A DNA stretch of 64,000 nucleotides. It comes from an uncultured Nitrospiraceae bacterium (GTDB taxonomy: Bacteria > Nitrospirota > Thermodesulfovibrionia > Thermodesulfovibrionales > Dissulfurispiraceae). The position numbers and the translations under genes are program-made. Where the stretch lies: contig CAVSHF010000003.1 in the NCBI GenBank assembly GCA_963727805.1, positions 2,336,001 through 2,400,000 on the forward strand, given 5' to 3'. The notes beneath the pieces were generated by a model that worked only from the letters and a program-made list of their open reading frames with translations, was not told the origin of the DNA and made no database searches. Shown piece after piece: positions 4,922 to 44,121 of this stretch. The number at the start of each line of letters is the position of its first letter. Position 1 is the stretch's first letter.

Positions 4922-5895
4922 TTCAAATTATCTTTGATTATATCCACCATGTTGCTACTAGTAAGGCCGTAGAGCTGCATCAGCTCCTTCGGAGAACCGG
5001 AGCAGCCGAAGGTATCCCGGACCCCAAGCTTCACGATCTTGATCGGATGATGTTCGGAAAGAAATTCCGAAACCGCGCTTCCGAGCCCGCCGATGATTGA
5101 ATGCTCTTCAGCGGTGAGGATGAACTTCGACTTTTCCGCCGCCGCGAGCAGCGCCTCGCTATCCAACGGTTTGATGGTCGACATGTTGATGACGCCCGCG
5201 TCGATCCCTTTCTTAGCAAGCATCTCTTGGGCTTCGAGCGAAGGAGCGACCATGATACCCGTGGCTACTATCGTGGCATCTTTGCCGATCGAATAGGTAT
5301 ACGCCTTCCCGATCCTGAACCTATAGCTTTCGGGCATTACCGGAGGCACCTTGGACCTGCCAAGCCTGACGTAGACCGGCCCTTCATATTCTGCAACAGC
5401 GTCGATCGCCTGCTTTGTCTCGAAGCCGTCGGCCGGGACGATCACGGTCATGCCCGGAAGGACACGCATGAGAGCAATATCCTCTAAGGCTTGGTGTGAC
5501 GCGCCGTCTTCGCCTACTGTGATACCACTGTGAGTTGCTACGAGCTTCACGTTGAGATGGGAGTAACACAACGTCTGCCTGATCTGCTCCCATGCCCTAC
5601 CGGTCTCGAAGACCGCGAAGGTCGATGCAAAGGGTATCTTGCCGGTAAGCGAAAGTCCGCCAGCCGTGCCGACCATGTCCTGCTCCGAAATCCCCATGTT
5701 GAAGAACCTATTGGGAAAGGCCTTTGAGAAGCCCTTTGTCTTAGTCGAGCCTGAGAGGTCCGCATCGAGCACGACGATATCTTTATTCCTTTTGCCGAGT
5801 TCCAGAAGTGCGGACCCATACGCGTCCCTAGTGGCGACGGCCTGCCCGGCAAAATCGGTCCTTTGTGTTTTCTGTTCCTGCTCTCTACTTCCCAT
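4918..5895 (-). CDS. Transketolase C-terminal subunit (split transketolase)
   Basis: DADLSGST, GISEQDMVG, GEDGASHQ, AEEHSIIGGLG. Confidence 0.93.
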   Translation of the reverse strand: MGSREQEQKTQRTDFAGQAVATRDAYGSALLELGKRNKDIVVLDADLSGSTKTKGFSKAFPNRFFNMGISEQDMVGTAGGLSLTGKIPFASTFAVFETGRAWEQIRQTLCYSHLNVKLVATHSGITVGEDGASHQALEDIALMRVLPGMTVIVPADGFETKQAIDAVAEYEGPVYVRLGRSKVPPVMPESYRFRIGKAYTYSIGKDATIVATGIMVAPSLEAQEMLAKKGIDAGVINMSTIKPLDSEALLAAAEKSKFILTAEEHSIIGGLGSAVSEFLSEHHPIKIVKLGVRDTFGCSGSPKELMQLYGLTSSNMVDIIKDNLK

Positions 5896-34854: not shown

Positions 34855-37263
34855 TTATTCTTCGACGACCCTGCCCATGCTGACAATCCTATCTTCAGGA
34901 TCCAGATCCATGAGCTTAACTCCCTGGGTATTTCTTCCTAAAACTGAGATGTTCCGGGTAGGCATTCTGATCACTTTGCCGCCGTTTGTAATAAGGACAA
35001 TCTCGTCTTCGTCTGTCACGCGAATAAGGCCTACAGCGTTCCCACCCTTTTCGACAACCCTGATTGAGATGACGCCCCTACCTCCTCTGCCGTGAACAGG
35101 ATACTCTTCAATATTTGTCCTCTTTCCGAGTCCCTTTTCCGTTACCGTCAGAAGGGACGTCCGCTCCTCAATAACATTGGCTGAAACGACGCCGTCCCCT
35201 TTGGTAAGCCTGATTCCTATGACGCCGCGCGCAGTGCGGCCCACTGACCTGACATCTTCTTCATTGAAACGGATGGCAAGACCTTTACTGGTGCCAATAA
35301 CAAGATCGCTCTTGCCGGAGGTTCTGTTCACGGAGATCAACTCGTCTCCCTCATCGAGAGTGACGGCGATGATGCCTTTTGAGCGCGGGTTGTTGTACTC
35401 GTCGAGTCTCGTCTTCTTCACTATCCCGGCCTTTGTAAACATGACGAGGTAGCCGTCCTTGAAGTCCTTGACACTGATGGCCGTCGATATCCTTTCACCG
35501 TCTGCCAAGGGAAGAAGATTTACAAAGGCCTTTCCTTTAGCCGTTCTGCTGGCCTCAGGTATCTGATACGTCTTCAGCCAATACAGCCTTCCGAGATTGC
35601 TGAAAAAAAGCATATAATCATGGGTCGACCCTATAAAAAGCTGCTCGACGTAATCCTCTTCGCGCGTCTCCATTCCGGTGAGCCCCTTGCCGCCACGGCG
35701 CTGACTCCGATAGGTCGAAAGAGCTAATCGCTTGATATAGCCGTAATGCGTAATTGTTATGACCATCTCCTCTTCGGTGATGAGGTCTTCGATGGTAAGA
35801 TCGGCGGTTTCGGGGACGATCTCGGTCCTTCTCTCGTCCGCGTATTTCGTCTTGATCTCGATCAGCTCGTCCTTGATGATCTGCGAAACAAGTGCCTCGC
35901 TCTCCAAGATGGCCTTAAGACGCTTGATCTCATTGAGTATCTCTTCATAGTCTCTGACTATCTTTTCCCTTTCAAGTCCGGTCAGTCTCTGGAGCCTCAT
36001 ATCGAGTATAGCCTGTGCCTGGATAACCGAAAGAGGGTATTTCTCAATGAGGCCGGCTTTCGCTTCATCAGGGGTCTTCGCCTTCCTGATCAGTGCTATG
36101 ATCTCGTCGAGATGGTCAAGGGCGATCTTGAGGCCTTCCAATATATGCGCCCTCTCTTCGGCCTTTCTCAACTCAAAGCGCGTCCTTCTGATGACAACAT
36201 CCCTGCGATGGCGGAGGAAATATGTAAGCATCTCGTTGAGTTTCAGCACACGGGGCTGGCCCCCCACAATGGAGAGCATGATAATACCGAAAGTGGTCTC
36301 CATCTGAGTGTGCTTATAGAGATTGTTCAGGACTACCTGAGGCACTTCGCCTCGCTTCAGTTCGAGGACTACCCTGACGTTTTCGTCGCGGTCAGATTCA
36401 TCACGTATGTCAGATATGCCTTCTAGCCTCTTTTCCCGGACGAGTTCGGCTATCTTTTCGATCAGCCTCGCCTTGTTCAGCTGATATGGTATTTCAGAGA
36501 TGATGATGCTGTCGCCGCTCTTGGCTTCCCTTTCGATCCGGGCCTTTGCCCTCACCTTTATAATTCCCCTCCCGGTGGTATAAGCGTCAATGATGCCCTG
36601 GGTCCCGTGAATGACAGCGCCCGTCGGGAAATCCGGCCCCTTGACTACAGCAAGCAGTTCGTTGATCGTCGTTTCGGGGTTATTGAGGAGCATGACAAGG
36701 CCGTCAATGACTTCTCCGAGATTATGCGGAGGTATATTCGTCGCCATTCCGACAGCTATACCTGAGGCCCCGTTGATGAGCAAGTTAGGTATCCTGGAAG
36801 GAAGGACAGCCGGTTCTTCAGTGGTCTCGTCGAAATTGGGGATGAAATCTACAGTCTCCTTTTCGATATCGGCAAGCAGTTCCTCGGCTATTTTTGCCAG
36901 TCTTGCCTCGGTATACCTATACGCAGCAGCTGGGTCGCCGTCTAAGGAGCCAAAATTCCCCTGTCCGTCAACAAGGGGATATCTCATGTTGAAGTCCTGC
37001 GCAAGCCTGACCATTGCATCATAGACGGCTGAGTCGCCGTGGGGATGATATTTCTTCAGAACCTCTCCAACAACTCCAGCGCTTTTCGAATATTTCTTAT
37101 TCGGGAGGAGACCCTCTTTATACATCGCATAGAGGATCCTCCTTTGGACTGGTTTAAGGCCATCCCGCACTTCGGGTAGAGCTCTCCCGATGATTACGCT
37201 CATCGCGTAATCGAGATAGCTGACTTTCATTTCTTCTTCTATACTTATTGAGACTCTCGACAT
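34855..37263 (-). CDS. gyrA: DNA gyrase subunit A
   Basis: [17 protein letters not shown], GyrA-box QRRGGKG. Confidence 0.98.
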
Positions 37264-37314: not shown

Positions 37315-37639
37315 CATTACCTGCATATTATTATGATTATATTGACTTTCATTGCTAAACTGGTAAGGACCGATCAACAAAAAATATGCCACATATGCTT
37401 TAGAAACGAGCGTATATTAAGTCAGTAAAGCATAGCGTCAGAGATGTAACTGAAATATTCTCTCTATTGGTCGTGTGGATATCGCAATTGCCCACCGCAC
37501 TGGCGATCAGGAGAAGTGCATATAGTCTGCCATAGTTAGGCGGCAAACCTATAGCGCAGAAGGAAAGGATTGGTACACTCTTCCAGATTCCGCGAGAGCG
37601 TAAGGAAAACAGCACTGCATCACGCCCGACTTGCATGTC

Positions 37640-37854
37640 ACTGCCGCTTATGCGTCCGGAATTGAAGTTTATGCGTCAACCGATAACATATATATGGGAT
37701 GGCGGATAAGCTGCAATTTCCCCTATATGTAAATCAACGACTTGCAATTTATTTTGGCGCATAAGGGGCTAAAAAGGTGGTAGCTTGGCGCATAAGATGC
37801 AATTTTCTGAAATACACGCATATCCGGACAATCTGTGTGCATGCGAACTATAGC
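37640..37854. repeat. Non-coding element E1: five TTGGCGCATAAG-type boxes plus an IHF-consensus site
   Basis: Boxes at 37647 and 37668 (one orientation), 37700, 37754 and 37785 (opposite); AATCAACGACTTG at 37732-37744; ends in CGAACTA 37844-37850. Confidence 0.85.
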
Positions 37855-37919
37855 TTGTCGCTTCTCGATGTCTTTTAGGACAAAAAGAGCCTAACTATGG
37901 ATGACAATGATAACAAATC

Positions 37920-38591
37920 TTACTCAGGTGATCCCGGCTCTTCGGCTTCTGGAACAGCTACGCCCATTAATGGCGCAAAAATAGTATTGGGCATAGAAGA
38001 TGTATTCCTATCAAGGGCTTGCTTTGGCGCAGTGCCGGCAATGGCGGCTGCGGCATCCGAATCGGAATCAGCAGTATCAGGCGTGCTATTGTCAGGCGTG
38101 CTATCCTGTGGTGTTGTAAAACCATAAGGGATATTCTTTTCATATGTCGTGGTAGTAAGTATCTGCTGAGTCTGGCTAAACGCACCCCATGTAAACACCT
38201 CTTCCCCTTTGTGCAGACGTACTGACCAGTTATAACGCGTGTCAGGCATCAGACGCTTTTTAACCTTATGATAATTAACAGTCAGGTTCTGTACACAGTA
38301 GGCAGGTTTTCCCCAACTCGTAGTGCGATATTGTGATATTGACAATCTGGGGCCAACAGGTTCGGGGGTCCAGATGCACATATCGTAGGTTTGGTCTTCC
38401 TCTCTTATATCTTTCCATTGCAATACAGGCTGCAATGAATCAACAACAGGATACTTATCACTATATCCAAGCTCAGGATATAGTGGTCTGGGGCTGTAGC
38501 TGTGATAAATCCTGTGTTCTACGCTGCATCCTGCAGTCATGCTACTTATTATCAGAGCAGCCAAGAAGACTGCCTTATAACCATGTTTCAT
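37920..38591 (-). CDS. Hypothetical lipoprotein with a beta-rich (Fn3-like) domain and low-complexity tail
   Basis: Lipobox MTAG-C; QPVLQW...YNWSVR...GFTTP; tail repeats DSTPDNSTPD. Confidence 0.7.
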   Translation of the reverse strand: MKHGYKAVFLAALIISSMTAGCSVEHRIYHSYSPRPLYPELGYSDKYPVVDSLQPVLQWKDIREEDQTYDMCIWTPEPVGPRLSISQYRTTSWGKPAYCVQNLTVNYHKVKKRLMPDTRYNWSVRLHKGEEVFTWGAFSQTQQILTTTTYEKNIPYGFTTPQDSTPDNSTPDTADSDSDAAAAIAGTAPKQALDRNTSSMPNTIFAPLMGVAVPEAEEPGSPE

Positions 38592-38600
38592 GGTGCCCCC

Positions 38601-38857
38601 CCTAACTAGGATCGGCCAAAAAGCATTGCACTTTATGCGTCAATTTATTGCAACTTATGCTTCACCCGATAAATATCGGTTGAAGCATAAGATGCTTTTT
38701 CCACTCTATAAAAAACAACGACTTACATTCGCAGTTGGCGCATAACGCTGCAATGAATTGGCGCATATGGTGCTAAAAAGCGGGTGAATTGGCGCATAAG
38801 CTGCTTTTTTCTGGAATTAAACTATTAATAAAATTACGGGTTATGCCATCCGAACTA
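38601..38857. repeat. Non-coding element E2, homologous to E1: six boxes plus an IHF-like site
   Basis: Boxes at 38632 and 38654 (one orientation), 38680, 38735, 38758 and 38789 (opposite); AAACAACGACTTA at 38713-38725; ends in CGAACTA 38851-38857. Confidence 0.85.
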
Positions 38858-38907: not shown

Positions 38908-39315
38908 TTAACCTATGGCGCTTACAGAAACGAACAGTCGCTCAGGGTGAGATAGGTTATTGAACATTGCTTTCGGAGCATACAGGTAGTATTGGTGACC
39001 TTCAAGTATAGCCACATATCTAATTGAATTTTTTTTCACTTCATTCAAATCATATTCCCAAAAATCGGATCCAGTCCGAGATGGGATAGTGGTTTTCAGA
39101 GAATCTAATTCTGCTTTTGGTAGATCGGTCTCCGTTATCGTTAGCATAATTTTCTGAGGCCAATTGTTATTTACCTTCATATCTGATAAACGTTGCTTGG
39201 GGGCGTAGAAACTAAACTGCCTGCCCGTATACTCCCACAAATACTGGATAGTTTTTTCATGATCTTCGACATAATCAAGTTCAAACTGAATTGGGCCTTT
39301 CCATTCTTTAGTCAT
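38908..39315 (-). CDS. Hypothetical protein with an internal tandem duplication
   Basis: RBS GAGGAG; two related halves, each containing YAPK. Confidence 0.75.
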   Translation of the reverse strand: MTKEWKGPIQFELDYVEDHEKTIQYLWEYTGRQFSFYAPKQRLSDMKVNNNWPQKIMLTITETDLPKAELDSLKTTIPSRTGSDFWEYDLNEVKKNSIRYVAILEGHQYYLYAPKAMFNNLSHPERLFVSVSAIG

Positions 39316-39407: not shown

Positions 39408-40232
39408 TTATATTCTAAACCACGGTTTATGGTCCCACGGTATTAATCTGCCCCGTTCATTAGCCCGAAAACTCGATAGGAGCCGTCGCTTAAATTTTCC
39501 CCACGGCCCTTTATGTTTCCCTTTGAGTTTTTCCAGTAATTTTAATCTTATTCTTACGTCCAATGAATCAATAATGTCTTGGGTTGCGTAGTGTGCACAT
39601 CGCGTTGGATAAAATTCCGCTGCATAGGTATCGTCATAAGCAAGTTGCGATAGTTGGGTAGCAATAGGTTGCACATTCAGCGCAGCCACGAATAGGCTTC
39701 TTTTCTCAGAGTTGCGATCTTGAACTGACCGGAATCGTTGAGATTTTCTATAATCACGCTGCAGCGCCGCCTGCCTTTCGCTTTCCTCTTTTTCAGAAAG
39801 TCCTATTCGAATCGCTTCATTGTGTCGTACCTTCTTGCTTCTATACTCCAAAAGTGAACTCGAACCGTAATTTTGTGTACCAAAAGGCACATAAGGATTA
39901 TTAGTGTGTGCTAATAGCCAGTCTGCCAGAATGTCAGCGATTAACGTATCCCTTTCTTGAACTGCCCGAAAGATCCAAATTACCGCCGAAACCGAGCCAC
40001 TTGCCCAGCCATCACAATTTACTTCCATGAAGGTAAGACCCTTCGCTAATACAACAATATCTTCGACTTGAAGTTTGTCAGTAACTTTGTTCCAGTCGTT
40101 CCAATGCAATCTATTGAGTCGTCCGTGCGGTCTCATAATTCCCACAATATTCTCTATATTGTCTTTGGATGCCGCATCGTTGACAGCTCGGCCAATCGTC
40201 ATAAGATTTTCAATGAATTGTTTTTTAATCAT
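39408..40232 (-). CDS. Hypothetical protein (274 aa)
   Basis: Long ORF with an ATGA overlap with the upstream nuclease-like gene. Confidence 0.75.
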   Translation of the reverse strand: MIKKQFIENLMTIGRAVNDAASKDNIENIVGIMRPHGRLNRLHWNDWNKVTDKLQVEDIVVLAKGLTFMEVNCDGWASGSVSAVIWIFRAVQERDTLIADILADWLLAHTNNPYVPFGTQNYGSSSLLEYRSKKVRHNEAIRIGLSEKEESERQAALQRDYRKSQRFRSVQDRNSEKRSLFVAALNVQPIATQLSQLAYDDTYAAEFYPTRCAHYATQDIIDSLDVRIRLKLLEKLKGKHKGPWGKFKRRLLSSFRANERGRLIPWDHKPWFRI

Positions 40233-40762
40233 TTTTTATCTGATTTATTTGCTATTGCCCTGATTTTATCAGTAATGTTTTCGACATATGGTGAGTCAAG
40301 TAGTTTGGGCTTTGCAACAAATACCCATTTAGGAGGAGAATCCTTAGGTTCTGTATAGTTGGCGATCTTCTGAAAATCGGAATGGGAAATTTTCATAGCA
40401 TATTTAACACCCATATCTTCATCGAAGACTATGTAAATCAAGTAGTCGAATGTCTTAGCAGCAATGATTGAGTGCTTTATATACGTCATTGGTACCCTGG
40501 ACCCTTCGAAAATGCGGCCTTTAACTTCAATTCGATCTCCAGAGGCCAGTGTCAAGTCGCGGCCTTCTTTGGCATTGGCCATCCGCGACCCATTAAAGGC
40601 TGTAGCGGCTAAATACTCTGCATACTCTCCAACGGGACTCCCTTTAGATTTTGAAACACCAAGCTTGCTCAGCGCTTCTTTAAGGTAGCGATCCAGAACC
40701 ATGATTTCATTTGGCTCCTTAATTCCGTCTATCATTCTTTTTATTTCTTCTATTTTGCTCAT
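40229..40762 (-). CDS. PD-(D/E)XK restriction-like nuclease domain protein
   Basis: GEYAEYLA...GRDL...RIEVKGR pattern. Confidence 0.7.
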   Translation of the reverse strand: MSKIEEIKRMIDGIKEPNEIMVLDRYLKEALSKLGVSKSKGSPVGEYAEYLAATAFNGSRMANAKEGRDLTLASGDRIEVKGRIFEGSRVPMTYIKHSIIAAKTFDYLIYIVFDEDMGVKYAMKISHSDFQKIANYTEPKDSPPKWVFVAKPKLLDSPYVENITDKIRAIANKSDKK

Positions 40763-40924: not shown

Positions 40925-41686
40925 CTATTTATCTGATTTTATATATTTACATCGAGGGTAATCAGCACAGCCTAAAAAAGATGATCCTACATGGACACCT
41001 CTTTTTGCTGTTCTTTGGACTAATTGTCCTCCACACTTAGGGCAAGTCGTCTTCGACTCATACCTGTCTTTTATTGATTCCATATGTGCCTCATAAGTAA
41101 GTGACTTATCATTTTTGACCGATAACAGCTTTGCAGTATACTCTTCAACTTGCTTCTCCGTAAGAATTTCCTGTTTGAATTCTCTTATATATGGAACGAT
41201 CCCACTGTTTAGCACATTAGGGGGCATTGGGCTTTTAAATGTGCAGTCCCCAATGAAGAATATAACTGGATACAGCAAACTGACGTCAATATTGAGGAAC
41301 TCCACTAGGCATTTAATATGTCGGTAATTCTGTTTGAGTGGGTTTTGAAATCGGCTTTTATGCCCATAAATGCTTTGTGTCCACTGTGAATCTTGGGCAT
41401 CCCCAAATATCCAGCCATTAATGTTCTTAGTCTCAACAACAAAAATCCCGTATTTTGAAACCACTATGTGGTCTATTTGTGTTGTCCCATCGGAAGCATT
41501 AATAATAACGTCATCTATACGATGGTATATATTGCTGTCCAGTGCCAGCCACATGCCAGCTGAAACGACTTTTTCACCGGCCCAGCCTTTTCCTTTTTTT
41601 GATTTTAAAAAATAGATTAGTATGAAAGCCGCGAATAGGAAAAGAAAAAAGGGCCACTGGGTTAAAATACCTTTTATTATTGCCAA
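40925..41686 (-). CDS. Membrane-anchored NERD-domain protein with a C-terminal topoisomerase-type Zn ribbon
   Basis: N-terminal TM, KGWAGE, TTQIDHIVVSKYGIFVVETK, NPLKQNYRH, CPKCGG...FLGCADYPRC. Confidence 0.9.
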   Translation of the reverse strand: MAIIKGILTQWPFFLFLFAAFILIYFLKSKKGKGWAGEKVVSAGMWLALDSNIYHRIDDVIINASDGTTQIDHIVVSKYGIFVVETKNINGWIFGDAQDSQWTQSIYGHKSRFQNPLKQNYRHIKCLVEFLNIDVSLLYPVIFFIGDCTFKSPMPPNVLNSGIVPYIREFKQEILTEKQVEEYTAKLLSVKNDKSLTYEAHMESIKDRYESKTTCPKCGGQLVQRTAKRGVHVGSSFLGCADYPRCKYIKSDK

Positions 41687-41703
41687 ACCTATAATATAAC
41701 TAA

Positions 41704-44121
<2,418 letters not shown>

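Follow-up and report, generated by a model that had tools for sequence, protein, structure and literature searches.

The window, i.e. the whole 64,000-nucleotide stretch of DNA that was analysed, contains an insert of 4.4 kb between gyrB and gyrA that is AT-richer and carries E1 and E2, two non-coding elements singled out by the initial annotation. All five genes of the insert lie on the minus strand in the open reading frame (ORF) listing, one being similar to methyl-directed restriction enzymes, one encoding a NERD nuclease and three having no family. The features are listed below in order of position, with 'end' and 'terminus' standing for the putative transposon ends argued for in the following paragraphs.

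34855-37263, minus strand: gyrA, the distal border of the island (NCBIfam TIGR01063 above cut-off).
37537-37553, minus strand: possible further decayed terminus, uncertain (pattern match only, a TAT-type 8-mer without a box array).
37640-37685, minus strand: E1 right end, with terminus 37685 and two boxes, cores at 13 and 34 (box matrix, end models).
37686-37692, minus strand: 7-bp gap between the E1 ends, its first five bases equal to the five before terminus 41693.
37693-37803, plus strand: E1 left end, with terminus 37693, box 1, an IHF site at 37732-37744 and two more boxes.
37920-38591, minus strand: predicted lipoprotein of 223 aa (ORF; signal peptide and lipobox-like cysteine judged by eye).
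38625-38671, minus strand: E2 right end, with terminus 38671 and two boxes, cores at 13 and 35 (box matrix, end models).
38672-38673, no strand: 2-bp gap between the E2 ends.
38674-38807, plus strand: E2 left end, with terminus 38674, box 1, an IHF site at 38713-38725 and three more boxes.
38908-39315, minus strand: cargo ORF of 135 aa (no family found in family scans).
39408-40232, minus strand: cargo ORF of 274 aa (no family found in family scans).
40229-40762, minus strand: cargo ORF of 177 aa, resembling type II methyl-directed restriction enzymes (PADLOC mREase_II, E 3.5e-21).
40925-41686, minus strand: cargo ORF with a NERD nuclease domain and a zinc ribbon (PF08378, E 7e-30; PF01396, E 4.8e-12).
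41677-41693, minus strand: likely decayed right-end terminus, 10 bp past the gyrB stop (8-mer and box core with one mismatch; no further boxes).
41694-41698, minus strand: 5-bp flank, a candidate target-site duplication (identical to 37692-37688, 5/5).
41704-44112, minus strand: gyrB, its 3' end being the presumed attachment site (NCBIfam TIGR01059 above cut-off, both parE models below).

Read from gyrB, the order is the gyrB stop, 10 bp, the decayed terminus 41693, four genes, left end 38674, the 2-bp gap, right end 38671, the lipoprotein gene, left end 37693, the 7-bp gap and right end 37685, for which no partner left end was found. The predicted lipoprotein, with no family above cut-off in the family scans, is the sole cargo of a 979-bp mini-element at 37693-38671. 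Contigs from four runs matched parts of the island, with none spanning it and no clean empty-site joint. Short repeats similar to the integron core border some cargo genes (window positions 37522-37541, 37889-37908, 38600-38610 and 39420-39431), with no attC-like pair.

The initial annotation had described E1 and E2 as homologous arrays of phased boxes around an IHF site, and all of these boxes were found in their places with the spacings described. A 21-bp box matrix scored boxes at 37640 and 37661 (minus) and 37697, 37752 and 37783 (plus) in E1, and at 38625 and 38647 (minus) and 38678, 38733, 38756 and 38787 (plus) in E2, and alignment bore out the homology (71% over 104 bp and 82% over 60 bp). 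The GCATA core is near-invariant across 78 boxes. The proposed involvement of IHF is supported at the level of the motif by IHF-type sites at 37732 (a perfect match) and 38713 (one mismatch), which occupy the same place in other left ends; the source genome (G000) encodes eight IHF/HU-family matches. Across this genome 30 sites scored at least 15, compared with 10-19 in three shuffles, and E1 and E2 hold 10 of the 30 and are the only places where such sites cluster. The profile search that had been suggested as a check produced no third copy in the source genome (3.89 Mb), while 10 of 101 related genomes were matched. Two of these ten matches (G064 and G077) were dropped as coding DNA without box arrays, G077 later coming back via its TnsB. 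The terminal CGAACTA that had been counted as part of both elements is present at 37844 and 38851 but missing from all 17 other left ends checked, and therefore lies outside the element.

Relatives have the IHF-bearing half and the adjacent-box half as separate pieces, or as a facing pair with a short or long interior between them, and at the start of every end is an 8-bp terminus of the T(G/A)T-N-GG type, 12 bases ahead of the box core. E1 and E2, each previously read as one unit, are therefore pairs of a right and a left end, with termini 37685|37693 and 38671|38674 in the middle. Very probably, these are the left and right ends of Tn7-like transposons standing back to back, likely stacked by repeated insertion ~10 bp past the gyrB stop. 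What was observed directly is the architecture of the ends, their position bordering tnsABC-tniQ elements and their over-representation just behind gyrB. From 20 left and 13 right ends of the source lineage and Proteobacteria, some with boxes missing, the layout was drawn as box cores at 13, 68/69, 91/92 and 122/123 with IHF at 39-40 in left ends, and cores at 13, 34/35 and 56/57 in right ends, box and IHF positions agreeing within a base between Proteobacteria and the source lineage. The E2 left end has the full form (cores at 13, 68, 91 and 122; IHF at 40), whereas that of E1 (cores at 13, 68 and 99; IHF at 40) is one 23-bp unit short of the four-box form. Asymmetric ends with several putative TnsB sites in the same orientation behind an 8-bp terminus, as found here, are the arrangement of Tn7-like elements.

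Scanning all species genomes yielded 27 loci, mostly in Proteobacteria, comprising 12 with multi-box ends, five uncounted duplicates of known loci, three single terminal boxes (L048, L057 and L069) and seven taken as chance single-box matches. Because the box matrix had been trained partly on E1 and E2 boxes, a model from Proteobacteria only served as an independent test. Built from eight proteobacterial left ends, it matched only E2 (E 3.6e-9) and E1 (E 1.8e-6) in the source genome, and the weaker proteobacterial right-end model (E about 0.008) ranked the same two sites first. In a plasmid-borne type I-F3 CAST, the full right-end model matched the end immediately before tnsA (E 4e-6). Three weak Bacillus coding matches from a plasmid DNA search with E1 were rejected, and none of five loci from a viral scan had the end architecture. 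The proteobacterial arrays L044, L056 and L051 likewise contain ends joined back to back, with gaps of 7, 2 and 0 bp among them.

Such ends bound tnsABC-tniQ operons in two complete cases. In the relative G013, the order is a right end 12 bp past the gyrB stop, defence-type cargo, TnsA, TnsB, TnsC, TniQ, a left end and a second small element, this full element having a related but distinct box variant; in L068, all four proteins are encoded between the ends. The arrangement was partly seen in L053, which holds TnsA, TnsB and the start of the following ORF and has its left end in L056, and in G077, where a left end lies below tniQ and no right end was found before the contig end. No cas genes were noticed in the ORF listings of G013, G050, G077 and L068. 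A 592-aa transposase-like protein without a Pfam match is encoded near a left end in G010, beside NotI-like restriction, Dam-type methylase and DUF4238 genes (L024:6940-8718).

Among 51 family genomes examined, 49 had a readable gyrB stop, and the terminus pattern occurred 7-18 bp after it, in one orientation, in 11 of these, compared with 17 of 2,264 ORF stops in the source genome, the pattern having been composed after many of these ends were known and kin among the genomes not being independent. The 21-bp box matrix, made earlier and trained without these ends, independently placed boxes 14-23 bp past gyrB in five genomes (G003, G031, G032, G055 and G313). A full element follows gyrB in one relative, and an empty state is seen in G006 and G009, where gyrA begins 37-38 bp after gyrB. 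Insertion in a fixed orientation and at a near-fixed distance from a conserved gene was thus found at gyrB, as it was at an nrdJ-type gene, and the 3' end of gyrB is taken to be the attachment site. Occupied and empty genomes did not differ clearly in the last 72 nt of gyrB. Target selection is likely to be the role of a 636-aa TniQ carrying HTH_17 domains, which is intact in G050 and broken by a single stop in G013; this protein would presumably recognise gyrB. Its homologues number 37 at E 1e-20 or better, most at 30-35% identity; a search across the phylum found it in two of 401 genomes, both already known, and a metagenome scan gave one 22% relative with no ends.

Several further arrangements were seen around these sites. 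Cargo-free mini-elements of ~240-345 bp, consisting only of a right and a left end, lie directly after gyrB in G003 (L023:12007-12248), G004 (L029:7737-8080) and G313 (L133:about 5360-5637), and in G055 the gyrB 3' end is duplicated ~0.9 kb downstream, with a transposon end following the second copy (L138, C60:54000-57600). Several left ends in G003, G007, G010 and G050 lie away from gyrB, suggesting a second targeting route or rearrangement. Family left ends in such positions (L021, L022, L024, L025, L026 and L028) are often beside defence-type genes, and one complete 2.95-kb unit in G007 is likewise away from gyrB. In Proteobacteria, a sister Tn7-like family with the same ends is found beside class II ribonucleotide reductase genes (nrdJ and a TSCPD-domain gene) in L050, L052, L053, L065, L068 and possibly L066, this neighbourhood having been covered by family scans on L053 and L050. 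Counted by hand, its right ends lie 26-32 bp past the nrdJ-type stop in L050, L053, L066 and L068.

Flanks of 5 bp were compared for 11 end pairs. They agreed at 5/5 positions in the outer composite of the source genome, for which chance agreement is about 0.1-0.2% from the island composition, and in L066; at 4/5 in L053/L056 and the outer unit of the source genome (the five bases after 38674); and at 3/5 or less in seven pairs (the inner pair of the source genome, G003, G004, G007, G013 twice and L068). The Tn7-like reading therefore needs later insertion, deletion or chimeric ends in these seven. The gaps within E1 and E2 are 7 and 2 bp rather than 5. The former fits an insertion 2 bp nearer to gyrB than an older one, and the latter could have arisen in two ways, by an insertion that entered the older terminus by 3 bp or by the loss of 3 bp from the tip of the hairpin. 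Insertion into the older terminus predicts an extra TGT, and several right ends do have an extra TGT before them.

The initial annotation had instead read the boxes as attachment arms for a trans-acting tyrosine recombinase, or as an integron-like gene-capture platform. Arm-like boxes flanking an IHF site, single genes between sites, gaps that are not 5 bp and the many tyrosine-recombinase matches in the source genome would all suit a recombinase, and a few island heptamers that resemble the integron core would suit an integron. However, the same ends bound tns operons and match the CAST end, and the 5-bp flanks are intact or nearly so in four pairs. The eight-copy recombinase of the source genome belongs to a separate 2.56-kb element without a box cluster, no IntI scored above cut-off in that genome, and no attC-like pair was found within 40-160 nt on either strand of the island. 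The linkage to tns genes largely refutes both versions, which are very unlikely. The sites instead match the ends of Tn7-like elements, which are acted on by a DDE transposase (TnsB), and the annotation was right in seeing cis sites of a mobile-DNA system, served by an enzyme absent from the window (the units have no transposase genes), at which unrelated genes are captured in a fixed place. The system is not an uncharacterised one, since the mechanism is known and the ends match a known kind of element at family level, an outcome the annotation itself had named as counting against its proposal. A candidate new gene-capture system is thereby removed, and a known mechanism explains E1 and E2. 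A likeness of the box to a dif half-site was dropped as there were no paired arms around a 6-bp core. The 2.56-kb element of the source genome (C3:847.7-850.3 kb and seven other places) consists of near-identical copies, each with genes for a tyrosine recombinase and for a 398-aa protein that by eye is IS91-type-transposase-like, and was recently active.

It is extremely unlikely that the arrays are sigma-54 promoters or activator operators with an IHF bend. GG-N10-GC is the invariant sigma-54 promoter motif and IHF beside such promoters is classical; this spacing is found in some boxes, among them the final one of each left end, and one end precedes a sigma-54 activator gene in a relative. 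Nevertheless, the motif is kept in only 17 of 78 boxes, the fitting boxes in the source genome are antisense to every island gene, and the neighbouring genes in relatives are unrelated. An iteron origin or a non-coding RNA, as might be suggested by the phased repeats and IHF site lying 8 kb from dnaA and by the potential hairpin at the centre of E2, has a negligible chance of being correct, given relatives with empty gyrB-gyrA junctions, no Rep-like gene among the island ORFs and a single Rfam match (E 0.47) far below the gathering score; the hairpin exists because two termini abut, the abutting E2 ends making an inverted repeat with 22-bp arms.

For the Tn7-like elements, a mechanism can be proposed by analogy with known systems. 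Each box would bind TnsB, and IHF may bend the left end between boxes 1 and 2, aiding the pairing of ends. The long TniQ with HTH_17 would recognise the gyrB 3' end and, via TnsC, place the right end next to gyrB, insertion creating a 5-bp duplication. Newer elements would push older ones toward gyrA, and remnants that lack a transposase, such as the 979-bp lipoprotein unit, would arise by internal deletion. In the source genome, the gyrB-proximal right end is a remnant only and no cognate transposase is left. The genome's only Tn7-like operon, and sole TniQ-bearing element (C5, about 893-898 kb), is free of these boxes and encodes a TnsB that shares 24% identity with the G013 protein. The window units are therefore probably stranded as long as the cell does not acquire a cognate element. 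This unrelated tnsABC-tniQ element (C5:about 887-898.5 kb) shares cargo, a LexA-like S24 peptidase gene and its neighbours, with the G003 and G013 elements. A more speculative and rather doubtful extension is that TniQ-HTH_17 homes elements to the 3' end of gyrB, which is essential and adjoins dnaA-dnaN. In this view TAT left ends are used and target immunity is weak, so that even very small non-autonomous units (242 bp to about 1 kb) continue to be moved in trans, stacking single genes like a transposase-driven cassette array. Any selector able to read the 3' end of gyrB could be developed into a broad safe-harbour integration tool, and would offer a test of the movement of target selectors between paralogues (parE and gyrB).

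All four intact termini in the source genome begin with TAT and not the usual TGT. In the source lineage, TAT opens 13 of 14 left ends, including two attached to tns operons (G013 and G077), while right ends are mixed (TAT in four intact ends, TGT in nine); the proteobacterial ends shown are all TGT. According to the portions of the published accounts available, TGT...ACA termini are usual in Tn7-like elements and not universal, McCAST is active with TAC, TGT is lacking from about 20% of a cyanobacterial set (PMC9881144), and terminal positions 1-3 matter in VchCAST (PMC10201428). TAT termini may be functional, or they may mark ends that can no longer move.

The closest known parallel in end structure is the type I-F3 CAST family (Tn6677/VchCAST), for which the accessible text describes an 8-bp terminus, asymmetric TnsB sites with those of the right end adjacent, and stimulation of transposition by an IHF site that separates left sites 1 and 2 (Walker 2023, PMC10201428; a 2026 preprint, 10.64898/2026.07.09.737429). 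These features are shared here, and the G013 TnsB is 37% identical to the transposase of the matched CAST. The present family differs in having four left-end boxes compared with three, TAT left termini and no cas genes seen in the ORF listings, and its left-end model had no match to that CAST within the 31-kb stretch covered. With McCAST and other non-TGT Tn7-like elements it shares termini that, in the sections consulted, are compatible with activity (PMC9881144), but the change here is to TAT and favours left ends. Likewise, the available part of a report on Tn7 islands at glmS and on Tn6022 multi-insertion islands, with glmS and comM as sites (PMC11014353), describes elements that insert repeatedly at a single site, with degraded copies and with duplications used for pairing ends; the present islands differ in site and host, and their remnants go down to 242-344 bp (G003 and G004).

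In targeting, the nearest parallels are the parE-directed Tn7-like elements (Tn7017 and the Acinetobacter parE family), which, in the portions of the literature covered, also insert just past a type II topoisomerase B-subunit gene under the direction of a long TniQ, but the target here is gyrB and TniQ is 636 aa with HTH_17, compared with about 486 aa in Acinetobacter. The attachment genes named for Tn7-like elements in those portions are glmS, ffs, parE, guaC, rsmJ, tRNAs, comM, nrdB and nrdD. Among the papers listed by the literature searches, none names gyrB or nrdJ as a Tn7-like site, and the main text and three supplements of Faure 2023 had no term for a gyrB or nrdJ-type site. The elements therefore appear to follow a known mechanism and are likely to be new by their target site, gyrB, and their TAT left terminus, together with a sister family beside nrdJ.
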